A stretch of 64,000 bases of DNA. Source: Candidatus Obscuribacteraceae bacterium (lineage in GTDB: Bacteria > Cyanobacteriota > Vampirovibrionia > Obscuribacterales > Obscuribacteraceae). The stretch is taken from positions 352,001 to 416,000 of the forward strand of contig JBGAHS010000006.1 in NCBI GenBank assembly GCA_044226015.1. The letters run 5' to 3'. Below, piece after piece: positions 11,005 to 53,126 of the stretch (its first letter is position 1; every line of letters starts with the position of its first letter). Made by a program: the position numbers and the translations under genes. The notes under the pieces are model-generated. The model was not told the origin of the DNA, made no database searches, and worked only from the letters and a program-made list of their open reading frames with translations.

Positions 11005-11216
11005 GCATGTTCGGTGAGCGATTGAAAAAGCAATCGCGTTGAGCCGAGGGGCAATGCGGAAACAGCAGGAATGCGCATTCCGGGAACAGCAGCAGAAAGC
11101 CCGTTTTACGTGAAGGATTGGCTGAAGCGTAGAAAGATATTGAGCCTCCCGCAAGAGGCAGCCAAGCAATAGCAATAATACCGCTGCGATTTAGTTCGAG
11201 CGGTATTTTTGTTTTT
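11005..11216 (+). ncRNA. Unassigned structured RNA, copy 1 (includes its intrinsic terminator)
   Basis: Homologous to 16067-16282 (-), with compensatory base changes and indels that break any shared ORF. Confidence 0.7.
11177..11216 (+). terminator. Rho-independent terminator of ncRNA copy 1
   Basis: AATACCGCT-N13-AGCGGTATT followed by TTTGTTTTT. Confidence 0.75.
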
Positions 11217-16066: not shown

Positions 16067-16282
16067 AACAAACAAAAACACCATCCGAACTAAATCGCGA
16101 TGGTGTTTTAGCTATTGCTTGGCTGCCTCTTGCGGGAGGCTCAATATCTCTCTACGCTTCAGCCAATCCGTCACGTAAAGCGGGCTCTGCTGCTGGTGTT
16201 TCCGGGATGCGCACCCCTGATGTTTCCACATCGCCCCTCGGCTCGTAGCGATTGCTTCATTCAATCGCTCACCGAATATGCA
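16067..16282 (-). ncRNA. Unassigned structured RNA, copy 2 (includes its intrinsic terminator)
   Basis: Reverse-complement homolog of 11005-11216; terminator AACACCATC-N13-GATGGTGTT followed by a T-tract. Confidence 0.7.
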
Positions 16283-35538: not shown

Positions 35539-35837
35539 CAATGAAGTCGGACTCTCTTCTGGAAGTGAGGCATGAAAGGCTCAGGATCCGAAACAAACCG
35601 GGCTCAATACCGCACCCAGACCCAGCACTTAGACTGGTCATGGCCGAAATCAGCCACCAACTCAAACCAGAGAACTCATGACATCCACATAATCTTGGGT
35701 CAGCCTAAAGTTAGCCCGAAAAGTCCTGCTATAGCTGGAACGAGCGCCTCCAAAAGAACGAGTGTTACAGCAGATTCACGCAATTAATTGCCAACAGGTT
35801 TTAGCCTCTGGCTACCGTGGTAATATGAATTAGCTAT

Positions 35838-35909
<72 letters not shown>

Positions 35910-35934
35910 TTTTTTCTTTTTGAATTGTCTAGCA

Positions 35935-35968
35935 AGACTTTTCGCGGTTGCGAAAGGTCTATTTTATT
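35935..35968 (+). terminator. Element-supplied hairpin downstream of the tRNA
   Basis: AGACTTTTCGC-ggtt-GCGAAAGGTCT followed by ATTTTATT. Confidence 0.5.
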
Positions 35969-36005
35969 GCCAAAATAGGCAGCGAAAATTTATGCAAATA
36001 CTCCA

Positions 36006-36905
36006 ATGATACTCCGGGGAAACTTAAATATGAAAGTTGAACAAAGGGACCCCTGCATCAATTGCAATTGTTGCCATGGCTATCAAGTCGCCAGAGACGA
36101 GCAAGGAGAACCATTACATGTAGGCAGCCAGATAATTCCTAATTGGGAAATTGATCTCGTGCGAGAATGTTTTACTAGAGATGGACGCCCCCTTGTCATA
36201 AAGATCGCAAAGAGTAATAAGGACAGAGAGATCCTCCTTAAGAATTGGAATGAGATTTTTCCTGACACAGATTCAACATTAGGCGTCATAGATCAATACA
36301 CGCGAAAAGCGAACGAAGCGTATCCGTATATTTGCTTTGCATCCATCAAGGGGAGAGCTGTTGGAAAACTATTTTTAGAGAGAAACTCAAACAACTCCAT
36401 GCGACGAGAACTTCAGGCTGCAATCATCGACAATGTCCAAGTGGACATAAACCATGAAGGTAACGGAATTTGCACCGAGATGCTTGCATTCGTGGAAGAA
36501 CTAGCAAGAAAAAACAAAATTGCATGGTTAGAGATCGGTGCTCGAAGAGTTGAGGATAATGAGGACCAAGGGCATCTCAGAAGGGGTTTAGACTCACTTC
36601 GAATTTACATCAAACGTGGCTACACAAAACATCCAGTGATACCCACAAGATCGCTCCTTATTCATAACTTAATTTCGATCGACAAAAAAAGTCGCAGCGC
36701 AGCCTGGTTGAAGAATTCCCCTCAACAAAACCAGGACAATATAAGCTTCACTATCACTCATCCCCGGTATGACTCAAGATCTCTGGTTGTCTACAAGAAT
36801 TTGCTTGAGCAGGACGAGAACGTGATGGACCAGCAGACGGTTCTCGCTCTGTTTAGAGAACTCACTGCAGATGTCCCACAGATCGACGACACCACCACAA
36901 ATTGA
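36006..36905 (+). CDS. GNAT-family acetyltransferase
   Basis: IDNVQVDINHEGNGICTEML acetyl-CoA motif; LRIYIKRGY. Confidence 0.75.
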   Translation: MILRGNLNMKVEQRDPCINCNCCHGYQVARDEQGEPLHVGSQIIPNWEIDLVRECFTRDGRPLVIKIAKSNKDREILLKNWNEIFPDTDSTLGVIDQYTRKANEAYPYICFASIKGRAVGKLFLERNSNNSMRRELQAAIIDNVQVDINHEGNGICTEMLAFVEELARKNKIAWLEIGARRVEDNEDQGHLRRGLDSLRIYIKRGYTKHPVIPTRSLLIHNLISIDKKSRSAAWLKNSPQQNQDNISFTITHPRYDSRSLVVYKNLLEQDENVMDQQTVLALFRELTADVPQIDDTTTN

Positions 36906-36980
36906 CACGCTGACACAGCGTTAGAAGAGCAACTAGAAGCGGGCACAACTTTAACGCAAGTTGATTGAATACAAGTTGAG

Positions 36981-37748
36981 TTGAATGTGCACGCACCCGA
37001 AATTCCTCAAAAAAAGCGATTAGTCGCCTACTACCGTGTCTCTTCAGAATCACAAGAAGAGAACAATAGTATCGACTTGCAGAAGCGCAAAATAAGTTGG
37101 GCTGCAGATAACTACGGTTTCGAGATCATCGCAAACATCGAAGCTGTCGAAAGCGCGACATGCCAAAGTGATGATCGTAAGCACTTCAAGGAAGCACTGG
37201 AGATAATCAGATCAGCCAATTGCGATGGCTTGATCGTCAATGATCTTGATCGTTTCTTTCGCAATACGGAAGAAGGCTTGAGGATTGCCAGGAAGGAGTT
37301 TCTTGAAAGTGGCAAGACGCTCATCACCTTGAATCAAAATATAGACATCAGCACTGATGACGGCTGGTTTATGTTTGGCGTAATGCTTCTATTTGCAGAG
37401 AAAGAAGCAAAAACAAATCGATACCGAATGCGCGAGGGGAAGAGGTCTAAATCGAGAGCGAATAAAGCAGCCTACCTTAATGGAGCCACGCCGTATGGCT
37501 ATAAATCAGCCGGACCAAGCGGTAAGCGTTATTTGCAAATCGATCCAAAAGAATATCCATGGCGCGAAAAAATATTCTCCTGGCGCAGCGAAGGACGTTC
37601 ATACAAATGGATCGCACAAGAACTAAACACAAACGGTGTGAAAACAAAACGCGGTCGACAATGGCGAGACACCACAGTCAGGATCATCCTGATTCGTCCG
37701 TTAGCCCTCCAGGAAGCTCTGCCTCAAATACCGCCTGAAATAGCATGA
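36981..37748 (+). CDS. Serine recombinase (resolvase domain plus short recombinase domain), paralog 1
   Basis: YYRVSS catalytic Ser, DLDRFFR, PYGY, IAQELN..GVKTKRG..W. Confidence 0.92.
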   Translation: MNVHAPEIPQKKRLVAYYRVSSESQEENNSIDLQKRKISWAADNYGFEIIANIEAVESATCQSDDRKHFKEALEIIRSANCDGLIVNDLDRFFRNTEEGLRIARKEFLESGKTLITLNQNIDISTDDGWFMFGVMLLFAEKEAKTNRYRMREGKRSKSRANKAAYLNGATPYGYKSAGPSGKRYLQIDPKEYPWREKIFSWRSEGRSYKWIAQELNTNGVKTKRGRQWRDTTVRIILIRPLALQEALPQIPPEIA

Positions 37749-37972
37749 ACCAGAAACATCTAACTCTGATAGTTAATAATGTTCTGCTGGCGGGTCCTTT
37801 CAGTTCAGCGGGTTGGTCATTTGAGTACAGGGTAATCAAAATTGCAGACAAGGATGGAATGCCCTTTGCAGAAATACAAGAGCGTTTCCAGCTAGAACGA
37901 AATTGGACACACTGCATGTTCATACCGTGGGAGATCTGGCAGCAAATCAATTCAAAAGGCGAAGCTAGATGA
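37745..37972 (+). CDS. Small hypothetical protein coupled between the two recombinases
   Basis: ATGA overlaps at both ends. Confidence 0.65.
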   Translation: MNQKHLTLIVNNVLLAGPFSSAGWSFEYRVIKIADKDGMPFAEIQERFQLERNWTHCMFIPWEIWQQINSKGEAR

Positions 37973-38718
37973 GCATGAAAAAGTTCATCGCCTTCTACAG
38001 AGTATCTAGTAATTCGCAAGAAGAAAACACAAGCCTGGAAATTCAAAAAGCGCGAATTAACTCTTGGGCAAAAGCGTGCAACCATCAGATTGTTCACGAG
38101 GTGGAAGCAGTTGAATCTGCCACGCGAACCATAGAGAGGCGGAAACTTTTCAAGCACGCGCTCGAACTCATGGATTCAAGTAACTGTGATGGCTTAATTG
38201 TTTACGACCTGGATCGTTTTTTTAGAAACGCGGAAGAGGGCTTGCGATGTGCTCGCATCAACTTTCTCGAACAAGGCAGAGTCTTATTGAGCTTAAATCA
38301 GAACATCGACATCAGCACACATGACGGCTGGTTTACTTTTGGAATATTTCTGCTTGTAGCCGAGAAGGAAGCCCGCACGATGCGTCGCAGAGTGACGGAA
38401 GGCAAATTACATAAAGCCGCCTCATCACTATGCGAAGGACGAAAAGCCTACATCGACGGAGCGCTACCATTTGGTTTCTCTTCATCGGGCGTGAGTGGCA
38501 GGCGTGAATTAGAGATCGACCCTTCAGAGTACCCCTGGCGTCAAAAGATCTTCGCCTGGCGCGCCGAGGGTCGTTCTTACAAATGGATCGCGCGCGAGCT
38601 GAACAGCAGGGGCGTAAAAACTAAGCGCGGGTTGGAGTGGCGTGATACCACGATACGACTAATGCTTGTGAGACCCATGGCTCTTCATGAGCTGATGAAC
38701 CAGGCGATCTCAAGTTAA
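37969..38718 (+). CDS. Serine recombinase, paralog 2
   Basis: FYRVSS, DLDRFFR, PFGF, IARELN..GVKTKRG..W. Confidence 0.92.
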   Translation: MSMKKFIAFYRVSSNSQEENTSLEIQKARINSWAKACNHQIVHEVEAVESATRTIERRKLFKHALELMDSSNCDGLIVYDLDRFFRNAEEGLRCARINFLEQGRVLLSLNQNIDISTHDGWFTFGIFLLVAEKEARTMRRRVTEGKLHKAASSLCEGRKAYIDGALPFGFSSSGVSGRRELEIDPSEYPWRQKIFAWRAEGRSYKWIARELNSRGVKTKRGLEWRDTTIRLMLVRPMALHELMNQAISS

Positions 38719-39113
38719 AGTTGCAATGAGCGCTTCAAGTCAGACTCAAGACACGAAATCTGCTTCAACAGCCGGACTAGATAAGCGATATCTTTATTAG
38801 TACGCAATACAGAGTCTTTGTCTAGCCTTTGCCTAACTTCGACATGCACTCTATGCAGCACTTTCAAAGTTTCAAGCTTGCATCGTGTAGTGTCGCCAAC
38901 CTCAGCAATTAGTGTTTCAGTTCGCGTGGCACGGTAAGCGATACGCTTTAATCGCCAATCTTCGCTCTTGCACCATTGCTCGACCTCACCTTTCGAAACC
39001 CCAAGCTGTTGCGCAATCAGCCCAAAGCGCGGCTTTTTCATGGCAACATACATGTTCAAGGCTGTCTCTCGCACAGGAACTATTTCAGCAAGATTATTCA
39101 CGCCCATTTCCAT
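38715..39113 (-). CDS. HTH protein resembling the N-terminus of a terminase small subunit
   Basis: IAQQLGVSKGEVEQWCKSEDW followed by helical segments. Confidence 0.5.
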   Translation of the reverse strand: MEMGVNNLAEIVPVRETALNMYVAMKKPRFGLIAQQLGVSKGEVEQWCKSEDWRLKRIAYRATRTETLIAEVGDTTRCKLETLKVLHRVHVEVRQRLDKDSVLRTNKDIAYLVRLLKQISCLESDLKRSLQL

Positions 39114-39321
39114 TCTCTTTCATAGCAAGAGCCTTCTCTGTGAGCTTAGCCAGCCTGAAAATCGTGTTTGCCGATTTTGCGAGAATATGAAGCTCGGCAT
39201 TGTTCTGAATATCGCTATCTAGCTTAGCTCTAGCCGCATCCAATCTAACCTCTATTTCTCGGAGAACAGCATCAGCTGCATCAATAGCTTCATCCCGAAA
39301 TTCATTTTTTATCGTTCTCAT
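39094..39321 (-). CDS. Small helical hypothetical protein
   Basis: 75-aa ORF overlapping the downstream gene. Confidence 0.55.
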   Translation of the reverse strand: MRTIKNEFRDEAIDAADAVLREIEVRLDAARAKLDSDIQNNAELHILAKSANTIFRLAKLTEKALAMKENGNGRE

Positions 39322-40104
39322 TTCAATTTCTCTTTTACGGAATCTCTTTATGACTTTATCTGAAAACGAATCATTGTTGAAGACTTAACATCGTAATGCG
39401 TCTTACTGCAAACATGGCGCCAGCGAAAAAAAATATCGCCATTGCAAAACATTTCTTTTCACGGTCTCTGTGGCGCTCTGGCGCTATGGCGCTGACTTTT
39501 TCTAATAGACAAAAATAGGAGATTTGAACTATAGAAAGAGCATCCTTTGCGTTTTTTTTCCTGGGATTTTAATTGGCACGGGGATATTGCGGGCGGAAAA
39601 CGCCCGCTGCACGGAGGACCCTTCACTCGATTCCCCGCCCCTTGGCAGCCGGAAGCGCCCGCTGGGCGGTGCCCCCGAGATCCCCCGCCCCTTGATTCCA
39701 GGGCGCTCCAAGCTATCTACTATCACGCGAAATTGCTCGTCCCTCCCCGTCGTTGCTGGGTTTCCAGGTCTTGACACAGCTGAATTGACACGTCGTTCTA
39801 ACAGCGTGTTAGCGCGAGGTATGCCCCGCCCGCCGCACGCATACGCCTGCTGCGTTAATTAATCCCATAACGCCATAGTCTCTCCGCCCAGGCACCGTGG
39901 GCGGTACCACCATTAAGTACACTCAACATGGCGAATTGTATTTTTTACTTCGTCATCTCCCTCTCTCATGAACATTGCGGACAACGTTAGGAGCGAAGAT
40001 ATACAACACACTACGGTGCTTACCACGCTGTACACTGTTAAGTCTTGCTTCTTGGCGATCAATGCAGTTCACTGAAATTGCATAGGTTACAAAGGAATTC
40101 ATCA

Positions 40105-40656
40105 ATGAAGGAATCAATAAGCAAACTACTTCTCAGTGAAACAGAAGTGACAGAAAAGTATGGATTGACTTCGCAATGGCTTAGGCGTGCGCGAATGGCT
40201 GGTGTTGATCACGGTCCACCATTCATCAAACTCGGCAGCAGGATTTTTTATCAAGAATCGCTGATCGATAAATACCTGCAGGACAATCTGCATACTTCAG
40301 GCGCTTGCGGTAAAGAAGAATCCAGCCGGATTGATCGAGTATTGAGCCAGCCTTTTTGTACACTCGGATTGAGTATGCCGTTAAGAACTGACTTGCAGTC
40401 CTTAGAAACCAAAGAAGGGATGCTTTTCAGCTGTGATGTGGATTACAACAAAGACTATTTGACCACAGCTCACATATACAGATTCAATGGTGCGCTCGTG
40501 GTATCAGTAGATTCAGAAAAGCTAGCATCTGAATATCCCAAATGTTTCGGACAGATCATTGCGCTCATGAATGGAAAACTAAAAGACCTTCTAAAAAGCA
40601 ATAGCCTGAATAAGCGTTTTGAAAATGTTGGTGAGATTAGCGCCATAGCGCCATAA
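40105..40656 (+). CDS. AlpA/excisionase-like HTH protein with C-terminal extension
   Basis: LLLSETEVTEKYGLTSQWLRRAR...GPPFIKLGSRIFY; AAGGA RBS. Confidence 0.75.
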   Translation: MKESISKLLLSETEVTEKYGLTSQWLRRARMAGVDHGPPFIKLGSRIFYQESLIDKYLQDNLHTSGACGKEESSRIDRVLSQPFCTLGLSMPLRTDLQSLETKEGMLFSCDVDYNKDYLTTAHIYRFNGALVVSVDSEKLASEYPKCFGQIIALMNGKLKDLLKSNSLNKRFENVGEISAIAP

Positions 40657-40851
40657 ATTCTGAAAGCGGTCTGGAGCAAGAGCTTTCCAGTGAATGATGC
40701 TATCGCCATATTGCGTCGTTCAGTTGTTACGGAAAAAACAGGCTTGTCATATAGAGCAATTAACCGGTTACAGACATGTCGCAGCCGGATAACTTATGTG
40801 GATATCAGGCGTGACTTGGTCACCCCAGCAAATGCTAAAAAGGACAAAACA

Positions 40852-41064
40852 ATGACGCAAGATAACTCAGATCTGATGAGCAGACCGGAAGCAGCCAAAT
40901 ATTTAGGTGTAAAAATTGCAACGCTTGAAGATTGGGCTTGTAGAGGACGTTATGGCATTCCATATACAAAGATTGGGCGCTTGGCGAAATACCGAAAATC
41001 TGATCTTGATGCCTTTATTGAAAGTCGCACCGTTAATGGTGCCAGTGAAGAAGATGCAAATTAG
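40852..41064 (+). CDS. Excisionase-family (HTH_17) protein
   Basis: LMSRPEAAKYLGVKIATLEDW...IPYTKIGRLAKYRKSDLDAFI. Confidence 0.88.
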   Translation: MTQDNSDLMSRPEAAKYLGVKIATLEDWACRGRYGIPYTKIGRLAKYRKSDLDAFIESRTVNGASEEDAN

Positions 41065-41917
41065 TCAATTGAAGAATCTAAAAGCTACCTCAACAGGATT
41101 CATCGCCTCCTGCCCTGCGCACGACGACAAAAAACCATCGCTATCTATTGATAGTAGAAACGGAAAGCTTTTAGTTTATTGCCACGCCGGATGTCCGCAA
41201 GATCGCGTGATGGAACTGCTGGATTCTGATGTAATCGGCAAGCACTTAGCGAACAAACCCGATTCCGCGATTGCGGACGAAAAGAAAAGAGAAGCCATTC
41301 GCCGGGTATGGGAGGAAGCGAAGCCAATCAAGACTTCGGATCTTGCCGCAACGTACTTGAGAAACCGAGGCATCAACCTCATGGAGTTTCCCGAATCGTT
41401 AAGATTTCATCCATCAGTAAAAGCCAAAGTAGATGAAGTGTTTATGTCATTTCCAGCGATGCTAGCTCGATTTGACGATAGCAACGGAGCAATGATTCAA
41501 GTTCATAGGACGCTCCTAAGCGCAGATGGCAGAAAGGCAAATATAGAATCTCCGAAGCGCATGATGAGTTCGCCGTCAGGCAACAACACCAGAGGCGGCG
41601 CCATAAGGCTGTTTCCCGCTGGTCGCCAATTGGGAATAGCAGAGGGAATTGAATCAGCCCTGGCGTGCAATTTAGCGACATCAATCCCAGTATGGAGCTG
41701 CTACTCAGCGACATGCATGGAATCCGTTGTCATTCCGGATGCGGTAGAAGAATTGTATGTGTTCGCCGATCACGATTCAGCAGGAACCAAAAGTGCGCGC
41801 GCAGTCGCCACTCGGTTAGCGAGGCAAAAGTTAAAGGTAAAAGTGTTAGTCCCGCCCACGCTTGGGCAGGATTGGCTCGATGTATGGAATGCTCACAATG
41901 ACATATCAAATGAATGA
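41054..41917 (+). CDS. Zn-finger plus TOPRIM primase
   Basis: CPAHDDKKPSL...CHAGC, IAEGIESAL, FADHDSAG, DWLD. Confidence 0.9.
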   Translation: MQISQLKNLKATSTGFIASCPAHDDKKPSLSIDSRNGKLLVYCHAGCPQDRVMELLDSDVIGKHLANKPDSAIADEKKREAIRRVWEEAKPIKTSDLAATYLRNRGINLMEFPESLRFHPSVKAKVDEVFMSFPAMLARFDDSNGAMIQVHRTLLSADGRKANIESPKRMMSSPSGNNTRGGAIRLFPAGRQLGIAEGIESALACNLATSIPVWSCYSATCMESVVIPDAVEELYVFADHDSAGTKSARAVATRLARQKLKVKVLVPPTLGQDWLDVWNAHNDISNE

Positions 41918-43457
41918 GATCATGCAAGCGGTACATAGCACACCGTTTTTTGATCCTGACGCCAAAGACGAAAACAAAAACAAAAGCACAGAAAGATCTA
42001 ACAAAAAAGCAGGAGAGATTCTTATCGACTGCACCACGTCGTGGGAAACCTGGAGATGCCCCTTAGGAAAAAGCTTTGTGAGTTTTGAGGCGAATGGACA
42101 TATCGAGCACCACGGAGTGCGCGACAACACCACGGCGCTAAAGCTCCAGCTTGAATATTACAAGAGCACCGGAACTGCGGCGAAGAAGTCTAATATTGAT
42201 GAATGCCTGGACAATCTCGAAGCTAAAGCGCTATTTGAAAACAGAGTTTATAGGACTGCGATTAGAGTCGCAGAATGGGAAGGCTCGATATATCATGACC
42301 TGGGCAACGACAAATGGGAAGCGATTAAAATAACTGCAGACGGTTATAACCTCGTTGATTCAAAGGAATTATCACAAACAGGATTTCGCTTTTTGCGCAA
42401 GCAGGCAATGCTTCCTCTGCCCTATCCACAAGAAGCGAGTACAAATCTGCAAGAGCTTTTTGCCATCTGCGGAATTCAAGATCAAGCAAATCAAATCCTG
42501 TTGAGTGGAATTCTAATTCAAGGTATCAATCCGAACGGACCGTATCCAATTTGCGTGATCCGAGGTACACAAGGGACGGGTAAATCGACTTTATCACGAA
42601 TGATTCGCCGTATTATTGATCCGAATCAAGCGGAAATCCGCTCTCTACCAAATGAAGAAGATCACTTTGGAATTCAATGCGAAAACAGTCATTTTTCTGT
42701 GTTCGACAACGTAAGTACACAGGACCTTCCGAGATGGTTTTATGATACGTGCTGCCGCCTAGCCACAGGCGCTGGTGCTAGCAAGCGCGCACTGTATAAA
42801 AATAACGACGAGGTTATCCGCAACATCTGTCGCCCTCTACTGATAAACGGAATAGATGATATGGTTGCCAGAGGCGACTTTCTAGAACGCGCCGTCATCA
42901 TCGAACTCAAACCTATTGATCCAGGTCGAAGAAAAACTCAAAGAGAAATCGAGGAAGCATTCGGAGAAGCTCATCCTCGGCTTTTGGGCGCTTTGTATCA
43001 TTTAACCTCCAGTGCACTCGCCAACAGAAATAAAGTCAGACTGAAAGAACTTCCAAGAATGGCTGACTTCTGCCAATGGATAACTGCATGTGAAGACGCC
43101 CTTCAATGGGAGCCAGGAACATTTGCAAGGACTTTGAAAGCGAACAGCCTGGATATGAATGACCTGGCGCTTGAATCATCTTCATTGGGATCTGCAATTA
43201 GGAAGGCTCTGCCTCTCGGAATTGAATCAACGAAAGATGCGGATCTCGAATACAAGAGCGCCAATGAAATTTTGAAAGTGCTAAGTAGATATAATGAAGA
43301 TCCAAACGACAGGACATTTCCTAAAACAGGCGCTGCTTTAAGCCGTCAGCTTAAAAGACTCGTTCCGCTGTTGAACCACGAGGGTTATGAGGTCGAGTTT
43401 CATAGAAAAGAGACAAATCTCAGACCTTTATCTATCCGGAGGATGAAGACCGAGTAG
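41898..43457 (+). CDS. P-loop ATPase / putative replicative helicase
   Basis: GTQGTGKS Walker A, FDNV, LINGI, DFLER; follows the primase; start uncertain. Confidence 0.8.
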   Translation: MTYQMNEIMQAVHSTPFFDPDAKDENKNKSTERSNKKAGEILIDCTTSWETWRCPLGKSFVSFEANGHIEHHGVRDNTTALKLQLEYYKSTGTAAKKSNIDECLDNLEAKALFENRVYRTAIRVAEWEGSIYHDLGNDKWEAIKITADGYNLVDSKELSQTGFRFLRKQAMLPLPYPQEASTNLQELFAICGIQDQANQILLSGILIQGINPNGPYPICVIRGTQGTGKSTLSRMIRRIIDPNQAEIRSLPNEEDHFGIQCENSHFSVFDNVSTQDLPRWFYDTCCRLATGAGASKRALYKNNDEVIRNICRPLLINGIDDMVARGDFLERAVIIELKPIDPGRRKTQREIEEAFGEAHPRLLGALYHLTSSALANRNKVRLKELPRMADFCQWITACEDALQWEPGTFARTLKANSLDMNDLALESSSLGSAIRKALPLGIESTKDADLEYKSANEILKVLSRYNEDPNDRTFPKTGAALSRQLKRLVPLLNHEGYEVEFHRKETNLRPLSIRRMKTE

Positions 43458-43461
43458 GCGT

Positions 43462-44160
43462 CTATCTTGGTTCGAGAACGGATCGGACTCTTTCGTAGGC
43501 ACGATCAACGTCCAAAGACTCCAACGAGATCATCAGCTTAAAATCAGGAGACTTTAATAGCTCAGCAAGGCTCTCAATAATATGAGCAGAATCATTTTCC
43601 TGGGCAAGAGCAAGCAATTTCAATAAAACTGCGAGGCACTTTGTGAATACTCCATTAATTGAATTTTTTACCTCCTGCTCCACGCTTGCAAAATATGTAC
43701 GCAAATCAGAAGCTATGAAATGTTCTGCCTCTCTTGATTGTCTTCCGCGCTTAGTAGGTACACGATCAAGGGCTAATTCGCAGATCCTATTGGTTGTAAT
43801 CAATAACTCCTCTGTATGATCCAATAGGCACCGCCCTTGGTGCCAGTCTGGTATTAGAATATCCATTATCGAACTTTCTAAAATGGTGCGACTTGAAGGA
43901 CTCAGTTCCTGTAAAGAATTTAGCGCAGCTTCAATGGATTTACTGAGAATCGCAAGTTGCTTTCTGCTCTCGTTTACTGTACCAATCTCCGCAGCCTTTA
44001 TGAACATACCTGCAAGGACTTTCGGTAGGTCGCGGCGTTGTGCTTCTGTGAGAAGCAAACCACAATCAGTAGCCCAAACGCCAGCCACAATGCCGAACAA
44101 TTCTTCGATATCGCCTCCATATATTTCTAAGATCCATTCAGTTGGAGGCAAATTTGCCAT
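43462..44160 (-). CDS. Hypothetical protein
   Basis: 232-aa helical ORF inside the element. Confidence 0.6.
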   Translation of the reverse strand: MANLPPTEWILEIYGGDIEELFGIVAGVWATDCGLLLTEAQRRDLPKVLAGMFIKAAEIGTVNESRKQLAILSKSIEAALNSLQELSPSSRTILESSIMDILIPDWHQGRCLLDHTEELLITTNRICELALDRVPTKRGRQSREAEHFIASDLRTYFASVEQEVKNSINGVFTKCLAVLLKLLALAQENDSAHIIESLAELLKSPDFKLMISLESLDVDRAYERVRSVLEPR

Positions 44161-44288
44161 AAGCTTTGCGGTTCCTGCGCGTAGAGATTATCAAGAAATG
44201 CGTAATGTAAAACGCCACTTGAGGAAGTATTGTTTTAGCACTTTTTTGCGTGTTTTATCAACAATAAGCGCCAGTAACAGGAGGGATT

Positions 44289-44498
44289 ATGGAAAGAAAT
44301 TCAAAGAAGCTTCTGACCGAAATTGAGGTGGAAATCACGTATGGAATCACGCGCCATTGGTTGCGAAGAAAACGAGTGGAAGGCGGCGGACCAGAATTCT
44401 TCAAGATCGGAAGGAATGTCCGTTACTCAGCCGAAAAAATCGAAGCTTTCATATCTGGAAGCCAGCAAAGCTCAACAAGCGCATTTTCTCAGCGCTAG
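44289..44498 (+). CDS. AlpA/excisionase-like HTH (candidate recombination directionality factor)
   Basis: LLTEIEVEITYGITRHWLRRKRVEGGGPEFFKIGRNVRY; convergent with and overlapping the integrase. Confidence 0.8.
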   Translation: MERNSKKLLTEIEVEITYGITRHWLRRKRVEGGGPEFFKIGRNVRYSAEKIEAFISGSQQSSTSAFSQR

Positions 44499-45748
44499 CA
44501 TTCTGATGTTTCAACTTTCGAAAGAATGAAATTAGTGATCCTTTCCATCGGTACTCTGAGTCGCTCGATGTCAGAGACTATATAACCAGCCGTGACATCA
44601 TTGCTAGTACTATGATTCAAAAGACGCTTAAGAGGATATCCCTGAATATCGAGAGCTTCAGCAACAGTAGCAAACGTCCGGCGAAGGTCATGGCAAGTAA
44701 ATTCAATACCAGTCTTTCTCGTAACCTCCATCATGGGTTTTCTTGGATCAACCAGATGACCTGATGCGCCATCGCCCGGAAAGACGAACGTTGATGAGCT
44801 TTCCTTCTTAATTTCAAGAAGGAAATTCGAAACATGAGGGGTAAGAGGTAGCGTATGGACAGAGCCATTCTTGGTGTCAGTTACTGTAAGCGTGGCTGAC
44901 TTAAAATCAATATCTTTCCATTGAAGCGCCGAAGCCTCTTCTTTGCGTAGCCCAGTAAACAAAAGCAACTTCAAATAATTTCTCACTATCATATTCTCAA
45001 GCGTCTCTACGGCATCATGCCATGGCTTCAGCTCATGAGCCTTCAGTACAGTCTGCCTTCGAGGAATTTTATTCCAAGCCTTGATTTGAGATATTCTGCT
45101 AACGGGGTTGATGCTGATTTGCAAATCCGAATCATCAAATTTATGTTGAGCGTAATTAAATAACGCACGCAAGATGCGCATGACTTGATTTGCTTGTGCC
45201 TTCCCATTCCAATCACTACTTCGTCTTTTAAGTCCTGTATTGCCAAGATCCTTGAAGCGTCGCTCAATCATATCTTTGGAAATCTCAGTTATTGGTCGGT
45301 CCATCCAATCAGACACGCAACGATTTAGAATCTTCAGATATCCACGTTTCGTCGATTCCTTGAGGCTTGAGCGATCTGCAAGGTAGTTTTCCAAAACGAA
45401 ACGGAGAGTCGCAGATCTCCGAGACTGAACTATTCTTTCCTGCCGCAACGATTCTTTAGCGACTGCATTTGGGTCAATTCCTTTTGCGAAATCCCCGAGA
45501 GTTCTTAATGCGAGTTCTCTCGCTTGATGGTGGGTGATGCTGCCCAACTTGCCCAGGCTGACCCGAATTACCTTACGACTCCCTTTGATACGTCCCTGTT
45601 GAAAAAACATCGCACCAGTAGGAGTGACACGTACCCCAAACCCTGACGGTTCACCTAAAAAGTGATAACCAGGCTGGGAGAGCAGCGCATCAATTGTCTT
45701 TTTTGTGATCTTGGGCATGACTGGAGTATCCATGAAACTTACACTCAT
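44495..45748 (-). CDS. int: Tyrosine integrase (P4-like, with arm-binding domain)
   Basis: TGLRKEE, TKNG, HDLRRT, LLNH...T.GY catalytic set; adjacent to attR. Confidence 0.95.
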   Translation of the reverse strand: MSVSFMDTPVMPKITKKTIDALLSQPGYHFLGEPSGFGVRVTPTGAMFFQQGRIKGSRKVIRVSLGKLGSITHHQARELALRTLGDFAKGIDPNAVAKESLRQERIVQSRRSATLRFVLENYLADRSSLKESTKRGYLKILNRCVSDWMDRPITEISKDMIERRFKDLGNTGLKRRSSDWNGKAQANQVMRILRALFNYAQHKFDDSDLQISINPVSRISQIKAWNKIPRRQTVLKAHELKPWHDAVETLENMIVRNYLKLLLFTGLRKEEASALQWKDIDFKSATLTVTDTKNGSVHTLPLTPHVSNFLLEIKKESSSTFVFPGDGASGHLVDPRKPMMEVTRKTGIEFTCHDLRRTFATVAEALDIQGYPLKRLLNHSTSNDVTAGYIVSDIERLRVPMERITNFILSKVETSEC

Positions 45749-45899
45749 ATGATACTCCATTTTCGGATAAGTCTTGCCTTGTTTCACTAAAACATGCACA
45801 ATTCAATCCATCCGCATAAGCTTACCCTTGCAGGCTTTACCGAATCTTGCCAAAACCGACCAGACTTCACCAAATCTTAGAATCAACGTTGCCCATATA

Positions 45900-45942
45900 A
45901 CTGTTAATCACTTGGTCGCTGGTTCGAATCCAGCCTCGGGAG
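45900..45942 (+). repeat. attR: duplicated 3' part of tRNA-Asn
   Basis: Identical to 35867-35909 and followed by CCA. Confidence 0.95.
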
Positions 45943-46091: not shown

Positions 46092-47114
46092 TCAATTTGT
46101 GTGAGGCTGCGAGCAGAACATTTGGTAGTATTCGGCCCACTTTGACTTTGTCATTTGCCAATCCGAATAAATGCAAATTCCTTGGTAACAATTAGGCGGC
46201 TTTTCACCAAGTCCAGCGTTGATCCCGCGCAGTGAATGAAATAGGTTTTCCGTATTTGGGTCATGATATCCAGCACCTGCATCATCATATGCTGGCAGAC
46301 CCAGCAGCACCTGCTTCGGGCTGTACCAGGCTAGAACATCATGTGTCCAATCTTTCATTTGTTGCTCGTACAGACCTGGAGAACGCAGTGATGTGTCATA
46401 CATCATTACTACTGCTTGATCGATAAGAGCAGCAACACTGCGTGAGTAGGATTCATCCCAGTGCACATCAGCATTCTGCTGCCAGAAAGTTGGTGGTGGG
46501 TACGCTGCAATAGATATTAGCTTACCTTCTGGTATCTGATTTCGAAGTTCTTGCAGCAGCAGCAAATAATCATTATTTCCTGAGCGTAGCGGTTCAATAT
46601 TTACGTGAATGCCAGCCAATCTTGGATGTTTTTCTAAAATACTTGCACATGACTTTGCAAATGCTTTTCTCCAGCGGTCATCATGCAAAAAAACGGTTTG
46701 CTTGTTCACACCACCGACCCAAGGCATTACTTGAAATCCCTGGAAGTTGTCTAAGAATCGTTCAACTTGAGTATCGTTGGAACAGGCAATCTGTCCAGCT
46801 TTAGCAGCGGGGCAAAGATGTGGAAACACATACTTTATGTGCGCATTTCTCAGTCGATCAGATGTTTCCTTCAACATATCTGCATCACGAAATGTTCTTG
46901 ACTCTTTTTTGTTTTCTATAAACCATGTATCGTCCCCCAGCCACCCATGTTGCATCCAGAGTCCATTAGCCATGCGGTCATACCGCCCGTCACGAACATC
47001 AAGTCCAGGTGACCAGAAGAAATAAACCAATGAAGCCAGAATCGCCAAAACACACAGTAACACACAGTGAGTTAACCAATTTTGAAAGTATTTTCTGCTT
47101 GTATCGGTGTGCAC
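46092..47114 (-). CDS. Membrane-anchored GH18-like TIM-barrel protein
   Basis: GIHVNIEP, VVMMYD, LLGLPAY; GTG start chosen by RBS because the longer ORF begins inside the IS110. Confidence 0.65.
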   Translation of the reverse strand: MHTDTSRKYFQNWLTHCVLLCVLAILASLVYFFWSPGLDVRDGRYDRMANGLWMQHGWLGDDTWFIENKKESRTFRDADMLKETSDRLRNAHIKYVFPHLCPAAKAGQIACSNDTQVERFLDNFQGFQVMPWVGGVNKQTVFLHDDRWRKAFAKSCASILEKHPRLAGIHVNIEPLRSGNNDYLLLLQELRNQIPEGKLISIAAYPPPTFWQQNADVHWDESYSRSVAALIDQAVVMMYDTSLRSPGLYEQQMKDWTHDVLAWYSPKQVLLGLPAYDDAGAGYHDPNTENLFHSLRGINAGLGEKPPNCYQGICIYSDWQMTKSKWAEYYQMFCSQPHTN

Positions 47115-47445
47115 TGCGAATGCCCCTCCCAACCGCCATATTACTATTATTCTCGAATGAAAGCGTGCCGGTACATGAAATGCCAATGGTAATCTCTTCG
47201 AGCCAATCATCACCAGAGCGTGAGCGAGCATTACCAGAGAGTTGTACGAAGGACAACCGATAGGTAATGCAGATATCGTGTTGAGTGTCAATAGCCCAAG
47301 ATCGGGGACAGCAGAGGCACGCGACGTTTTTCATCGTCAGTTGCCTTCCATACGCAATCAGCGCTATTGTTTCTAGAGGTGATCCCAATGCGGCCGCGAG
47401 CGCTGATCCCTCCTAGAAGGAATTAAGCGCCAAGCTCCACTCAGC

Positions 47446-48409
47446 TCAAGCGGAGACTATGTCGTCGCGGAAAGGCGTTCCAGACTTAAGTACGCCAAAT
47501 ATAATGTGCAAAAGCTTTCTCATAGAGGCTCCAACGGCCTTCATTGGAACCTTTCCATTCGCGATTAGGTTTCGATAAAATCGCGCAATGACGGGATTGT
47601 GATCTTTGCCACTATCGCCGGCAGAAGAAAGAGTGCTGAACGCAATCAGCATTTCCTGTTTTTGGATAGTCGAGTTCGTCCACGGATGGAGCTGCCAGAT
47701 CTGATTTCGCTGGGGCTGAACCTGCAAATGCCACCAGTTGTTTGGCATTCTCAAACAATTCAGTGAAGGAACTTCAGTGAGAATCACGTTTGCTGTTTCC
47801 TCACCAACTGCTGGAATAGACATGATCGGTTTCCGCTTCTGCTGCAGGTCGGATGCTTTTTGTAAAGCCTTTCAATTTGTCTTCAATTCGACCGATTTCT
47901 AGATCAGCACTTGAGGATGCGGTTCACCGAATCCATGTCAGCATGGTTTGCTTTCTCTGTTGATAAGCGGTTCTCTCCGCAACCCCTGAGCGCGTTAGAT
48001 CGTAGAGCGCCTCACCAGCATTTGTAATTGACGCACTTCGGGAGCTGGTGGGTGCCGCAGCTTTAGTTCATTGTTTAGCGCCGTCTGAGTACCCCAGCAT
48101 CGACTTTGTCTGTTTTGGTTCCTTCCAGCTCCTCTGAGCAAATCGCCTGATACCGTCAAGTTCGGCAGCTAACAGACTCGCCTGCCAGTGAAAGAGAAAA
48201 ATCAGCGAGGTCATATAATACGCACCCGGTGGCTTCCTGCAGAACAATGCGTTCTCAACTCCGATTTTTTGCAACCAGCGCAAGCCCTGGAAGCCTTTTT
48301 CGGTTTGTGAAACTGATGGTGTTTCTCTTTCCCTGTCACCTCCACGACGCTCGAAATCTTTCGAGATGTCGATTCCAACAAAACAGTCGAACATGCAATC
48401 CCTCTTCAT
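47446..48409 (-). pseudogene. IS110 recombinase, multiply frameshifted in this sequence
   Basis: FVGIDISK N-terminus, SIPAVGEETA, MRKLLHIIFGVLKSG C-terminus. Confidence 0.85.
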
Positions 48410-48429
48410 TCTGATTTTCTAGTTATAAG

Positions 48430-48640
48430 ACGCATGGTAATGCCTGACTTGGTCAACCTACTAGTCAGACTCTCACTCAAAGTGGGTCTTAGATATCGTC
48501 CGACCTGCATATCAGGATAGGGAAGGCAAACAAATCTGCCATTACAGGATCAAGTCCTAAAGATAAACACTGTTTTGCCTTCCCCCTACCTCAGCGTCCC
48601 GAAGTAGAGCTTGATCAGCCGGAGTTCCAGTGTCAAGCCA
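48430..48640 (-). ncRNA. Putative bridge RNA of IS110 copy 1 (boundaries approximate)
   Basis: Target loop with TTTATCT and GTAATGGCAGAT; donor loop with ACGATATCT. Confidence 0.75.
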
Positions 48641-48897
48641 TCGTTATCGAAGATAGCAAGATAAAAGGTCTCTCCTCGTACCTCGAATGCTACTACTGAC
48701 CGGGCTCTATAGAGGAGATTGACAGGGCTCGCCAGTCGAAATCCACTGCAAAAGACCATATATGCATCCAAGCTCTACATCTAAAGAGGAGAACAAATCT
48801 GCTGGATAAGATCTAGGGTGAACGGACTAGATGAGGTTCTTCTTCCAGTAGTTGGAGCCACAATGCTGTGCAGATTTCGCGTATGCGATAATGTCCA

Positions 48898-51198
48898 TTG
48901 CTAGTCCGCTCAGCTATATTGACGCTTCAGTGTATGTTTAAGATCTATCCAAAAGAAGAGACAATAATTCGAATCTGCGCGTGCCTTCTTTTGGCTTTAG
49001 GCAGTTCCGTTTTCTCGGTCTTTCTCGCGCCAGGTTATGGCAATGTGATTTTTATTGAAGGGGGGCCAAGCGGGAAAGAGCACGGAGAAATTATAATCAA
49101 GGACGACTCGGATAGAGCAACGTTAAAGGACTGGGGACCGACACTGAGAAGGTTGCAGCTTATCGGAGACCTCAACGATAATGACTACGACATCTTAATA
49201 AAAATGCCATTTCTCAAGAATCTCTGGCTGGGTGATTCGAAGCTAACTTGCGCAAGGCTTGAACGCCTGAACAACTGCATGCAGCTGGAAGAGCTTGAAT
49301 TAGCCAATCCAAATTTGAAAAATGATTCTATGGACGGAATGAGACCGTTGACCAGAATACGGGAACTGGGCTTGATAGATTGCCAGGATTTGCTGAATAA
49401 GCAAGGTAAGCTGAATCTTCATCCGTTTCCAAGCATATTGAGCCTGAGAGTCTCGGCACATGGAGACGACTTTAGCTGTGATAGCTTGTTATCTCACAAG
49501 GATACCTTAGAGAAGTTCTGGGTTATGTGGACCGTGAAAAATCCACAATCACTCGGAAAGATGCGCAAACTAAACGATCTAACGCTGTGGTTTCATCGAT
49601 TTGATGTAGAAACCAACCACGCCATAAGGTCGCTAGGACAGCTGAAGACGCTGGTGCTATGTGCAAACGGACTCAGCACCGATAGTTACGAAAGTATAGG
49701 AACACTTTCGAATCTGAAAAGACTGGAGCTGAATAATGAAAGATTGACTGGGAAAGAGTTTCAATCAATTGGAAGGCTAAGAAATCTTGAGTACATCAAT
49801 CTAGACAATGGCTCTTATGTTGATAGTGATTTTCAAAAATTGAGTGGTCTCAAAAAGCTCAGGGAGCTGACATGCCGGGGACCGATCAACGGTACAGGGT
49901 TAGCAGCTTTTACGAATACGAAAATCGAGAAGCTAGATATATCAGGCGAGAAGCTCACGTCAAGCGGATTTGCAGCTATATGTGGCTTGAGTAATTTGCA
50001 AAAGCTGACTATTTGTCCTTGCAAAAGTCAGCCGGAATGGTCCAACGTGCTTGCAAACCTTTCGCAGCTACAAGAATTCAACGTTGCTTGTCCTGCCACT
50101 GGTGCCGATTCATGGGCCAGAGCTCTAGCGCAATCAAGCAATCTTGAGAGTGTAAATTTATCAAATAGTGACTTTTCTGATGAAGGGATTAGATTCCTTC
50201 TGAGCTTGCCTCATTTGGAAAAACTGAATATTGGAAATACAAGGGTAACGGATAGAGGGCTGGACATGTTGAAAAATATGCAGCAACTTCAAGATCTGAC
50301 AGTTAGTCACTGTAAAATTTCTGATGCTGGAATGAAGTCGATTGGTGCACTGGCCGGATTGAGGCAATTACATTTGGAATATACGCCAATTACCGATGAA
50401 GGATTGGGATACCTGGTGCCATTGTCTAATCTTGAATCGCTGCAACTTGATGGAACAGAGATAACTGGGATGGGACTCGAACATGTTGCCAAACTTCCAG
50501 CTCTCCGAAAGTTAAATCTAAGAGAATCAACAGTTCGCAGCGATTCAATCTCATTCCTTGTGGGGACGGGCATTGAATCCCTCGATATCAGCCATACTGA
50601 AATTAGTGAACATGCATTACCATCGTTAAGATCTCTTGCTAAGCTGAAAAATCTTCAGATGGACGGCTGCGGATTCATGACCAAGGAATCAATTCCGGCG
50701 CAACCGCAAGGTTACGTGATCCGGTTTCCAGCTGCACCGGCTAACATTGCACATCCTCAATATTGTGCACCGGCTTCACCAGCGATAAGCAGAGACCAGT
50801 TGTTGAATGATTTGAACAAACTGAACGCAGATTTGGATGCGCGCCTACATCCAGGCATATATATTTGCAGCAACATTGCACGTGGCTGGACAGAATCGAT
50901 TTTCGAACTATACAATCGGCGGGCCTTTGTGCACAATGCACTCAAGAATTTTGATAAAGCCTTGGCCGATGCAAATGCAGCGGTCCGATTGAATCGGCTT
51001 TCTGTTGCGGCGCGCAACAACAGAGCGTTAGCATACCTCAGATTGGGTCAATACGAAAATGCCTTGCTCGATCTTGACCGTGCTCTGGAAATCGATCCGA
51101 AGTGTGGGGAGTCATGTACGCTGCGTAACGAAGTCTTAGATAAATTGAACCAGAAAGGCATGACCGATCGCTTGGAAGACAGATCACATATCAATTGA
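48898..51198 (+). CDS. Leucine-rich-repeat protein with C-terminal TPRs
   Basis: Repeats such as LEKLNIGNTRVTDRGLDML; ARNNRALAYLRLGQYENALLDLDRALEIDP. Confidence 0.88.
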   Translation: MLVRSAILTLQCMFKIYPKEETIIRICACLLLALGSSVFSVFLAPGYGNVIFIEGGPSGKEHGEIIIKDDSDRATLKDWGPTLRRLQLIGDLNDNDYDILIKMPFLKNLWLGDSKLTCARLERLNNCMQLEELELANPNLKNDSMDGMRPLTRIRELGLIDCQDLLNKQGKLNLHPFPSILSLRVSAHGDDFSCDSLLSHKDTLEKFWVMWTVKNPQSLGKMRKLNDLTLWFHRFDVETNHAIRSLGQLKTLVLCANGLSTDSYESIGTLSNLKRLELNNERLTGKEFQSIGRLRNLEYINLDNGSYVDSDFQKLSGLKKLRELTCRGPINGTGLAAFTNTKIEKLDISGEKLTSSGFAAICGLSNLQKLTICPCKSQPEWSNVLANLSQLQEFNVACPATGADSWARALAQSSNLESVNLSNSDFSDEGIRFLLSLPHLEKLNIGNTRVTDRGLDMLKNMQQLQDLTVSHCKISDAGMKSIGALAGLRQLHLEYTPITDEGLGYLVPLSNLESLQLDGTEITGMGLEHVAKLPALRKLNLRESTVRSDSISFLVGTGIESLDISHTEISEHALPSLRSLAKLKNLQMDGCGFMTKESIPAQPQGYVIRFPAAPANIAHPQYCAPASPAISRDQLLNDLNKLNADLDARLHPGIYICSNIARGWTESIFELYNRRAFVHNALKNFDKALADANAAVRLNRLSVAARNNRALAYLRLGQYENALLDLDRALEIDPKCGESCTLRNEVLDKLNQKGMTDRLEDRSHIN

Positions 51199-51412
51199 TG
51201 AAGCCGGTTACAGCGACTCGCCGTAAGGCAGATATCGTGTTGAGTGTCAATAGCCCAAGATCGGGGACAGCAGAGGCACGCGACGTTTTTCATCGTCAGT
51301 TGCCTTCCATAAGCGATCAGCGCTATAGTTTCTACCGATGATCCCAATGCGGACTCGAGCGCTGATCCCTCCTGGAAGGAATTAAGCGCCAAGCTCTGTC
51401 GAACAACTCAGC

Positions 51413-52375
51413 TCAAGCGAAGACTAGGTCGTCGCGGAAAGGCGTTCCAGACTTAAGTACGCCAAATATAATGTGCAAAAGCTTTCTCATAGAGGCTCCA
51501 ACGGCCTTCATTGGAACCTTTCCATTCGCGATTAGGTTTCGATAAAATCGCGCAATGACGGGATTGTGATCTTTTGCCACTATCGCCGCAGAAAAGTGCT
51601 GAACGCAATCTAGCATTTCCTGTTTTGGATAGTCGAGTTCGTCCACGGATGGAGCTGCCAGATCTGATTTTCTTTGCGGGAACTGGGACACGAAATGCCG
51701 CCAGTTGGGGCAAATTTCTCCGGCAATTCCAGTGGAACTTCAGTGAAAATCCCGCGTTTGCTGTTTCTCACCAACTGCTGGAATAGACATGATCAGTTTC
51801 CGCTTCTGCTGCAGGTCCGGATGCTTTTTGTAAAGCCTTCAATTTGTCTTCGAATTCGACCGATTTCGATCTAAACGCCAGGATGCGGTTCACCGAATCC
51901 ATGTCGCATGGTTTGCTTTTCTCTGTTGATAAGCCAGTTCTCTCCTGGCGCCCTAATTTTGTTGAGATCGTAGAGGGCGCCTCACCAGCATTGTAATTGA
52001 CGCACTTCGGGAGCTGGTGGGTGCCACTGCGCTGGATTCATTGTTCTTGCCAAATGGAAATTGCCCCAGCATCGACTTTGTCTGTTTTGGTTCGCTTCAG
52101 CTCACTCTGAGCAAATCGCCTGATACTGAGTCGGATTCACGACGCTAACAGACTCGCCTGCCAGTGAAGAAAAATCGAGTCATACCAATACGCACCGGTG
52201 GCTTCCATGCAGAACAGTGCGTTCCTCAGCCTCGATTTTTTTGCAACCAGCGCAAAGAAGCCCTGGAAGCCTTTTTCGGTTTGTGAAAACTGATGGTGTT
52301 TCTCTTTCCCTGTCACCTCCACGAAACATCAAAGAAATCTTTCGAGATGTCGATTCCAACAAAACAGTCGAACAT
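51413..52375 (-). pseudogene. IS110 recombinase, multiply frameshifted in this sequence
   Basis: FCMEATGAYW, SGSSIRGRTRLSKTGNARLRSAL (catalytic Ser region), MRKLLHIIFGVLK. Confidence 0.85.
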
Positions 52376-52399
52376 TAATCCCTCTTCCATTCTAGTTTT

Positions 52400-52620
52400 C
52401 TGGTTATAAGACGCATTGTATGCGCACAACCTGATCAACCTGCTAAATTCAGACTCTCACTCAAGTGGTGCCAGATATCGTCCGACCTGCATATCAGGAT
52501 AGGAAGGCAAACAAATCTGCCATTACAGGATCAAGTCCTAAAGATAAACACTGTTTTGCCTTCCCCCTACCTCAGCGTCCCGAAGTAGAGCTTGATCAGC
52601 CGGAGTTCCAGTGTCAAGCC
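52400..52620 (-). ncRNA. Putative bridge RNA of IS110 copy 2 (boundaries approximate)
   Basis: Same guide segments at 52542-52548, 52515-52526 and 52473-52481. Confidence 0.72.
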
Positions 52621-53126
52621 ATCGTTATCGAAGATAGCAAGATAAAGCGAGTGTCTACGATTCTCTTGAGACACCATATGCGGTGCTTTTGGGTATCGAA
52701 GATACGAACGCAAGTCTCATCCGTCAGCGGATTTTATTGGGCTATTCCGCATGTCACTGTCGTCGTCTGCCCGAAAGCTGGACAGACCTGAGGCAAGAAT
52801 AAAAAATGGCTCGCGCACGTCTGCCTCTCCGTCCTAGCACATGCTCCAAGACAATTTGCTGCTCGCGAGTGCTCGCGTATGCCTACCGGCGTCCAGCTGC
52901 CGGGCTCCAGCTGCCGCCCTCGGCAAGTGACGCGCAAAGTAGGCGCCACTTGTTGTGATATAGTGGGAAAAGCCTGAAGATGATAAGAGAGATATTGAAC
53001 ATGAAGTCCTCGGCACGACGTTTTAGCTAATCAATTCAATCGATGAGTGGACCGCCGTCTTGCCTTTGATTAGAGGCGGATAGAAAGACATGCTGTCATT
53101 TTACTTCGATTTGAGGAGATACTAAG

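Follow-up and report, generated by a model that had tools for sequence, protein, structure and literature searches.

The window, a 64,000-nt stretch of DNA, holds two copies of an IS621-type IS110 element whose bridge-RNA guides very probably spell a motif that lies upstream of relaxase genes and is likely a MOBP-type oriT nick site. Insertion is predicted one base 5′ of the inferred nick, with TATCTTG-C kept. This assessment is based on features read from the sequence, namely guide complementarity, empty sites, differing cores, a −35/17-nt/−10 promoter, and the place and strand of the motif. By analogy with IS621, circle formation, bridge-RNA expression, a cut after position 9 and handshake-driven exchange would be expected here as well. 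The benefit to the element would be a conserved, non-coding and mobile landing site.

Table 1. Features of the IS110 copies, their predicted bridge RNA and their insertion sites (positions in the window)
Feature	Position	Strand	Remark
IS110 copy 1 (donor-derived DNA including right-junction core CT)	47271..48657	-	1,387 nt
IS110 copy 2	51230..52638	-	1,409 nt
IS110 recombinase gene, copy 1, frameshifted in assembly	47446..48409	-	
Left target half TTTTATC and core TT, copy 1	48658..48666	-	X1 contig spans 48636-48720 without difference
Right target half GCATTAC and following inverted repeat (displaced 3′ side of oriT-like site), copy 1	47228..47270	-	
Left target half CTTTATC and core TT, copy 2	52639..52647	-	
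Right target half GCCTTAC, copy 2	51223..51229	-	
oriT-like 5′ side, copy 1	48660..48794	.	77% identity over 124 nt to regions upstream of RHH-relaxase operons in two congeners
Predicted bridge-RNA target-binding loop (outer stem, guides, inner hairpin)	48521..48586	-	
Target-loop outer stem	48586-48572/48531-48521	-	
Target-loop inner hairpin AGGA-CTTGA-TCCT	48558-48546	-	
Left target guide GTTTATCTT, 9-mer	48560..48568	-	First base C in copy 3 and in X3, X7 and X8 contigs
Right target guide AATGGCAG, 7 pairs and one bulged base	48536..48543	-	
Handshake guide AT of target loop	48534..48535	-	Cf. PMC13626964 (in extract)
String GTAATGGCAGAT (right-guide segment of the initial annotation)	48545-48534	-	
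Left donor guide ACGATATCT	48491..48499	-	
Right donor guide and handshake GT	48456..48466	-	Garbled in copy 1 assembly; ATTTAGCAG-GT in copies 2 and 3 and two orthologues
Right end: −35 box TTGACA (47291-47286), left donor half ACGATAT (47279-47273), donor core CT	47271..47291	-	
Right donor half GCTAT, overlapping predicted −10 box TATCTT	48650..48657	-	TATCTTG-C is rebuilt at the left junction by the GC of this half

An IS621-like IS110 element in three genomic copies

The initial annotation had proposed that the guides explain the two insertion sites in the window. In a register shifted by one base, the guides pair with both sites, and a genome search located a third copy, on contig C8, whose empty allele (L144) carries the same target. 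Copies 1 and 2 contain many indels in the assembly. Because contigs of four runs (X1, X2, X3 and X6; at most three studies) agree on identical indel differences from copy 1, these indels are most likely assembly errors; X1 and X2 possibly represent the source sample and do not count as independent.

Copy 3 reads in a single frame, with an internal deletion and a late stop. This reading matched PF01548 (E 8.5e-25) and PF02371 (E 5e-14), and it matched NF033542 above the cut-off. Its D, E, D/D and S residues align with those of IS621, giving a DEDD RuvC-like domain and a Tnp domain with the catalytic serine, and its only solved relatives are IS621 and ISCro4 (E 1.7e-43 and 1.9e-46). By every testable feature except identical cores, the element is a member of the IS110 (IS621-like) group. 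A protein scan of the genome collection returned nothing beyond the query's own locus, a viral scan gave 0 matches, and Rfam matched nothing in 47000-53000. A metagenome pattern scan, for which the positive control worked, found an IS110 gene at 0 of 120 loci, so its pattern matches were regarded as chance.

Predicted bridge RNA in the left end

An IS621-type bridge-RNA architecture had been recognised in the initial annotation, and our analysis bears this out: there are four guides, AT and GT handshakes, a predicted circle-junction promoter, and a DEDD plus Ser recombinase. Every string quoted there was found on the minus strand. Laid out on the IS621 map (PMC11208158, in extract), the left end reads as a 3-nt linker, GTTTATCTT, one U, the hairpin, a GT linker, AATGGCAG and AT, and its donor part as ACGATATCT, then ATTTAGCAG, then the handshake GT. 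The 145 nt at 48521-48665 are identical in copy 2.

The expected fold of the end region held for the target loop, which was better than its shuffles (z −2.92; third copy, z −3.90), and failed for the donor loop, which was no better than shuffles (z 0.25) and is without independent support. In a comparison of three sequences, of which two are close, seven pairs of the target-loop outer stem differ at both bases. When the 258-nt left end was resampled 200,000 times under a Markov model, the left-guide 8-mer appeared 1,393 times, the donor 8-mer 640 times, and the left and right target guides in order in 128 resamples. The handshake dinucleotides of wild-type IS621 are AT and GT, as here (PMC13626964, in extract), and the Watson-Crick pairs of the handshake AT rise from 0 to 2 on exchange. 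Joining the ends would create a predicted promoter, TTGAC(A/G)-17 nt-TATCTT, which was matched in sequence in 5 of 5 elements; a promoter scan of the integrated left end found none.

Target, donor and core sequences

The register of the insertion was determined from empty sites in relatives. From 53 rows we removed 3 off-site rows and 3 occupied sites (L142, L164 and L244, with ends of a second lineage, B, described below), and all 47 remaining sites read ATC-TT-GC. One of them, L144, belongs to a congener; it is the orthologous allele of copy 3 without the insertion and reads TTTATC-TT-GCCTTAC. On this evidence the target gains one T, the donor loses one and the target core is TT, giving the corrected target (C/T)TTTATC-TT-GC(A/C)TT. 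Since ATTTAGCAG, the right donor guide, is complementary to CT-GCTAT once two bases are flipped, as they are in IS621, the donor is ACGATAT-CT-GCTAT. The 14-mers reconstructed in the initial annotation were thus off by one base (0 occurrences in the 8.19-Mb genome), and its donor carried one T too many. Its equation of the left guide with the left half of the target plus core holds for the guide, as a 9-mer at 48568-48560; the CT proposed as target core does not stand.

That earlier register, with a CT core in both partners and the target TTTATCTGC(A/C)TTAC, would explain the junctions by a 2-nt repeat, as in IS621. It is scarcely credible, however, since the genome contains no such site, the extra T is present in 47/47 empty sites, ATTTAGCAG does not pair with CT-TGCTA, the promoter spacer would become 18 instead of 17 nt, and the orthologous empty allele L144 refutes it.

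The left-junction core was TT in copies 1 and 2 and in contigs of X3, X7 and X8, and the right-junction core was CT in all three genomic copies. Copy 3 is an exception that counts against the main reading, with CT at its left junction though its empty allele has TT. An identical CT core in target and donor was not found, the target having TT and the donor CT. Other IS110 elements of the family (L177, L182, L185, L187 and L188) have AT at the left junction and CT at the right where it is visible, with the pair AT/CT read in L177, L187 and L188; because they too show unlike cores, we treat these as a variant and not as grounds for exclusion from the IS110 group. The first core base is less conserved (PMC11208158, in extract), and matching cores were paired in 10.1101/2025.05.14.653916 (in extract). 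IS621 is cut on the top strand after position 9 (PMC11208158), and top-strand insertion has been described (10.1101/2025.10.25.684509, in extract). By analogy, TT on the left and CT on the right would be the expected remnant of these two steps. A loose-end consensus of X1 at 48665 was considered as a new site; it was a blend of copy 2 and copy 3 flanks and was left uncounted.

Guide pairing and length of the right target guide

The left guide pairs at 8 of 9 positions in copies 1 and 2, with position 1 mismatched, and at 8 positions plus a wobble in copy 3. The right guide carries one extra base relative to the right target half, as had been noticed at the outset, and forms 7/7 pairs with one bulge. 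The bulged base is G in copy 1, where position 12 of the target is A, and T in copies 2 and 3, where it is C. Position 12 in the 47 empty sites was C in 33 and A in 14, and never G or T. The extra base may let the guide read A or C at this position by bulging G or T.

The further suggestion that the right guide extends to about 10 nt is doubtful, as its first two bases fall at the G72-U73 linker of IS621 (PMC11208158, in extract) and two orthologues have a 2-nt linker followed by 7 nt. Longer right guides have already been reported in orthologues (PMC11208160, in extract). A guide of 9-10 nt, running through the GT beside the inner hairpin, would fit the AC at positions 15-16 of all three targets, against 0 of 16 congener matches outside oriT contexts, and would fit L325, an oriT-like site by an RHH gene that is complementary without a bulge and has an extra base (1 of 8 pattern matches). 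However, AC simply belongs to the oriT consensus (43/47 empty sites), the G is kept in G088 and G043 although unable to pair there, and the protein of IS621 holds G72, a base in the syn conformation (PMC11208158, in extract). We therefore consider the longer guide unlikely.

The target motif lies upstream of relaxase operons

The motif YATCTTGC was found on the opposite strand upstream of MOBP-type relaxases at 28/28 loci, 27 of them at 550-622 nt, where the scored loci were those with at least 700 nt upstream among 30 fetched. Controls at the same loci gave 0/28 on the same strand and 1/28 downstream. Because the genomes are kin, this figure reflects conservation and not 28 independent events. 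Homologues of the small RHH-like gene were present in 74 of 104 family genomes and usually precede the relaxase (seen at 22 of the 30 fetched loci), and the motif lies at a fixed distance of ~125-175 nt upstream of the RHH gene. On the circular 70-kb contig C2 (G000:C2:1900-6035; L140 and L252), a NikA-like RHH gene is followed by a relaxase at 2542-4089 with a weak match to PF03432 (E 6e-8) and a VirD4-type coupling protein. The oriT-like site of this contig is the only empty site of its kind in the genome and mismatches the guide at position 3. VirB4 (PF03135) had no match in the genome, which is 92% complete, so that no helper machinery was found.

MOBP relaxases nick at the consensus (C/T)ATCCTG(C/T) and remain attached to the 5′ end; a 3′ product of ~9 nt puts the cut between G and C (PMC3772185, in extract). 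The lagging side is where relaxase genes are normally found (PMC11541004, in extract), and the RHH and relaxase genes were on the expected lagging side of the motif at 28/28 relaxase loci. TATCTTGC, one base off the consensus, occurs in 47/47 empty sites, which read ATCTTG and not ATCCTG, and the exact published TATCCTGC occurs with a second relaxase clade, in the same geometry, in 3 of 8 relatives. These features suggest that the motif is likely a MOBP-type oriT nick site (nic). It could instead be an operator or promoter of the RHH-relaxase operon, the IS then targeting a regulatory repeat. The fixed distance to the RHH gene and the single-base departure from the MOBP consensus would suit such a role, whereas the invariance of the ATCTTGC core, its placement on the strand and side expected of nic, and the exact TATCCTGC of the second clade argue against it, making a purely regulatory motif quite improbable.

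Seven congeners contained 28 guide-compatible 13-mers, 16 of them without oriT context. Positions 13-16 (TTAC), 3′ of the inferred nick, are kept in most empty sites, and a GTAA-type inverted arm was found downstream at 22 of 48 sites. At 4 of the 48, the downstream inverted arm equals the guide's own 8-mer and is a possible source of the guide. Two oriT-like sites with one extra base, L325 (G065) and L313 (G057), complement the right guide without a bulge. An attC/REP target was rejected: the short inverted repeat resembled attC at first sight, but the genome has no repeated empty copies, and the motif tracks relaxase operons.

Orthologues and a second lineage

The orthologues in G088, of which L135 is intact, and in G043 have left guides GCTTATC and CTTTATC and right guides GAGGCAG and GTGGCAG, both of which change with their targets. 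Their right guide comprises 7 nt after a 2-nt linker and has no bulge, and the final A of their left guides is mismatched at position 9. Guide-target covariation was also seen in G049 and in lineage B; few independent lineages are involved. The G049 orthologue (left guide TTTTATC-CT) lies upstream of an RHH-relaxase-coupling protein operon of another relaxase clade, and TTTTATCCTGCC is found upstream in 3 of 8 relatives of the G049-type relaxase. No relaxase was detected near the G088, G043 and G092 insertions at the 5 loci examined; the G088 and G043 insertions keep TATCCTG-C, and three lie near tyrosine integrases.

The family also contains a second IS110 lineage, B, whose protein shares ~42% identity with that of G088. 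With the left guide ATCTTGC-CT, lineage B inserts in the same oriT-like motif as the lineage of the present element (A), 3 nt further 3′. Its RNA accounts for 13 of 17 pattern matches (L173-L176, L178-L180, L184, L192, L265 and L271-L273), and the other 4 are not bridge RNAs. Of the 13, ten show the left junction in the motif, 4 show TACCG after the right junction, and 2 lie downstream of RHH and relaxase genes. Among the left-junction pattern matches (n = 17), 7 look like chance (L201, L203-L207 and L210) and L202 was set aside. In a tree from which one short row was left out and IS621 itself is absent, A and B each formed supported clades and joining them was not rejected (AU p 0.226). An independent origin of the two lineages was thus not accepted as established, a common origin being compatible with this value. 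In another element, L279 on a Pantoea plasmid, the left end contains a ~65-nt tandem repeat that spans its left junction, upstream of the IS110 gene.

Genomic context of the three copies

Neither an RHH nor a relaxase gene lies beside copies 1 and 2, and no transfer gene adjoins them. Copy 3 is located ~130 nt upstream of a small RHH-like gene, with only this RHH-like gene beside it. On both sides, the flanks of copies 1 and 3 are more like empty sites than 1,000/1,000 random stretches. The right flank of copy 2 is no more oriT-like than random stretches (521/1,000), and its left flank is moderately so (2/1,000). Copies 1 and 2, which lie just beyond a tRNA-Asn island, resemble orphan origins.

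The island (35837-45942), bounded by tRNA-Asn and a partial tRNA copy (45888-45942), contains a tyrosine integrase (44495-45799), a primase-like gene and two serine recombinases. Upstream of copy 2, a GC-rich stretch of ~190 nt (52730-52930) has homologues in four relatives and at G000:C12:322091. At a loose end of X6 at 47264, the 30 bases past the right junction resemble a lineage-B left end, which suggests that lineages A and B may be stacked in one origin.

Fate of the occupied origin

By analogy with published work, a top-strand circle would be copied out. The junction promoter would then drive RNA and recombinase, the target loop would find TTTATC-TT-GC(A/C)TT, and the element would be inserted one base 5′ of the inferred nick. 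Nicking of the rebuilt site, if it still occurred, would make the element the first DNA into the recipient, where fresh origins would be targets. If the displaced 3′ bases were required, the origin would be disabled until excision.

We tentatively propose, as a possibility somewhat short of probable, that bridge RNAs have been set to nick sites and donor ends rewritten to rebuild the nick, at registers −1 and +3 and tuned to ATCTTG or ATCCTG. Each copy would then be the leading DNA of a working origin, an RNA-guided conjugation hitch-hiker. With the targeting unchanged, insertion may instead disable the origin, oriT being only a conserved repeated site and no transfer occurring until excision; this deserves serious consideration without being the expected outcome. 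Consistent with a disabled origin, the TTAC at positions 13-16 is displaced by 1.4 kb along with the GTAA-type arm, where present, and copies 1-3 lie in elements without a relaxase. For the streptococcal IME_oriT, no mobilisation in cis was found and an origin disabled until excision was suggested (PMC7563843, in extract). The donor ends, however, point the other way. Among 14 other IS110 relatives, 12 have TGTAT as right donor half, an indicative count from a search by few set words, and both lineages have replaced this sequence, A by GCTAT and B mostly by TA(C/T)AC, each opening with the target's bases at that place. Because the donor ends copy the target's 3′ bases, the motif is intact on the left in both lineages, where the junction keeps the whole 5′ side plus G-C (A) or plus GC-CT-TA (B). 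Occupied sites with RHH and relaxase genes upstream also exist (L138, L265 and L273). This donor-end mimicry favours a still-working origin over a disabled one only slightly.

Relation to known systems

Some IS110/IS1111 members, namely IS4321/IS5075 in Tn21 repeats and IS1111-attC, likewise target other mobile DNA by RNA-guided insertion at conserved cis sites. They belong to a different group and use different sites, none of which is known to be a relaxase nick region. Titles and abstracts, most subscription papers being outside reach, yielded no oriT-targeting IS110, and none of four oriT terms was present in the seven supplements of PMC11208160.

IS621 and ISCro4/IS622 (PMC11208160 and PMC11208158, in extract; PDB 8wt6 and 9t56) have the same recombinase family and a two-loop RNA in the left end, and share with the present element 9-nt left guides, a discontinuous 9-nt right donor guide, AU and GU handshakes and a junction promoter. 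Unlike them, the element has an oriT-like target instead of REP, a target core TT against a donor core CT, an 8-nt right target guide with a bulge, and a right donor half GCTAT in place of TGTAT. The IME_oriT elements known from streptococci and S. aureus (PMC7563843, in extract) are also mobile and integrate specifically at the transfer origin of conjugative elements, near the nick site, but they use a protein-specified integrase, carry their own Rep_trans relaxase and cargo, and enter MOBT origins in Firmicutes. Here, in contrast, a 1.4-kb RNA-guided IS without a transfer gene enters likely MOBP-type origins; in place of the integrase and Rep_trans relaxase of IME_oriT, a single IS110 recombinase gene was found. 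The MOBP oriT nick regions of RP4 and H. pylori tfs4 (PMC3772185, in extract) share the (C/T)ATCYTG-C core upstream of the relaxase, with inverted repeats nearby, whereas the putative nic of the main relaxase clade here has ATCTTG and not ATCCTG.

Bridge RNAs are known, and the present case bears on why natural guides carry the sequences they do. A guide aimed at the likely start of conjugation would offer a minimal IS without transfer genes a route to new hosts, and such guides could help to locate oriT in an uncultured lineage. The element also offers engineers a natural case of differing target and donor cores and of a right guide whose bulge may let it accept two bases.

Other features of the window

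A 51-nt tandem repeat of at least 12 units (19835-20695) lies within an 820-codon ORF (19814-22276). A 117-nt inverted repeat, 89% complementary, has its arms at 11098-11214 and 16070-16186, 4.9 kb apart.
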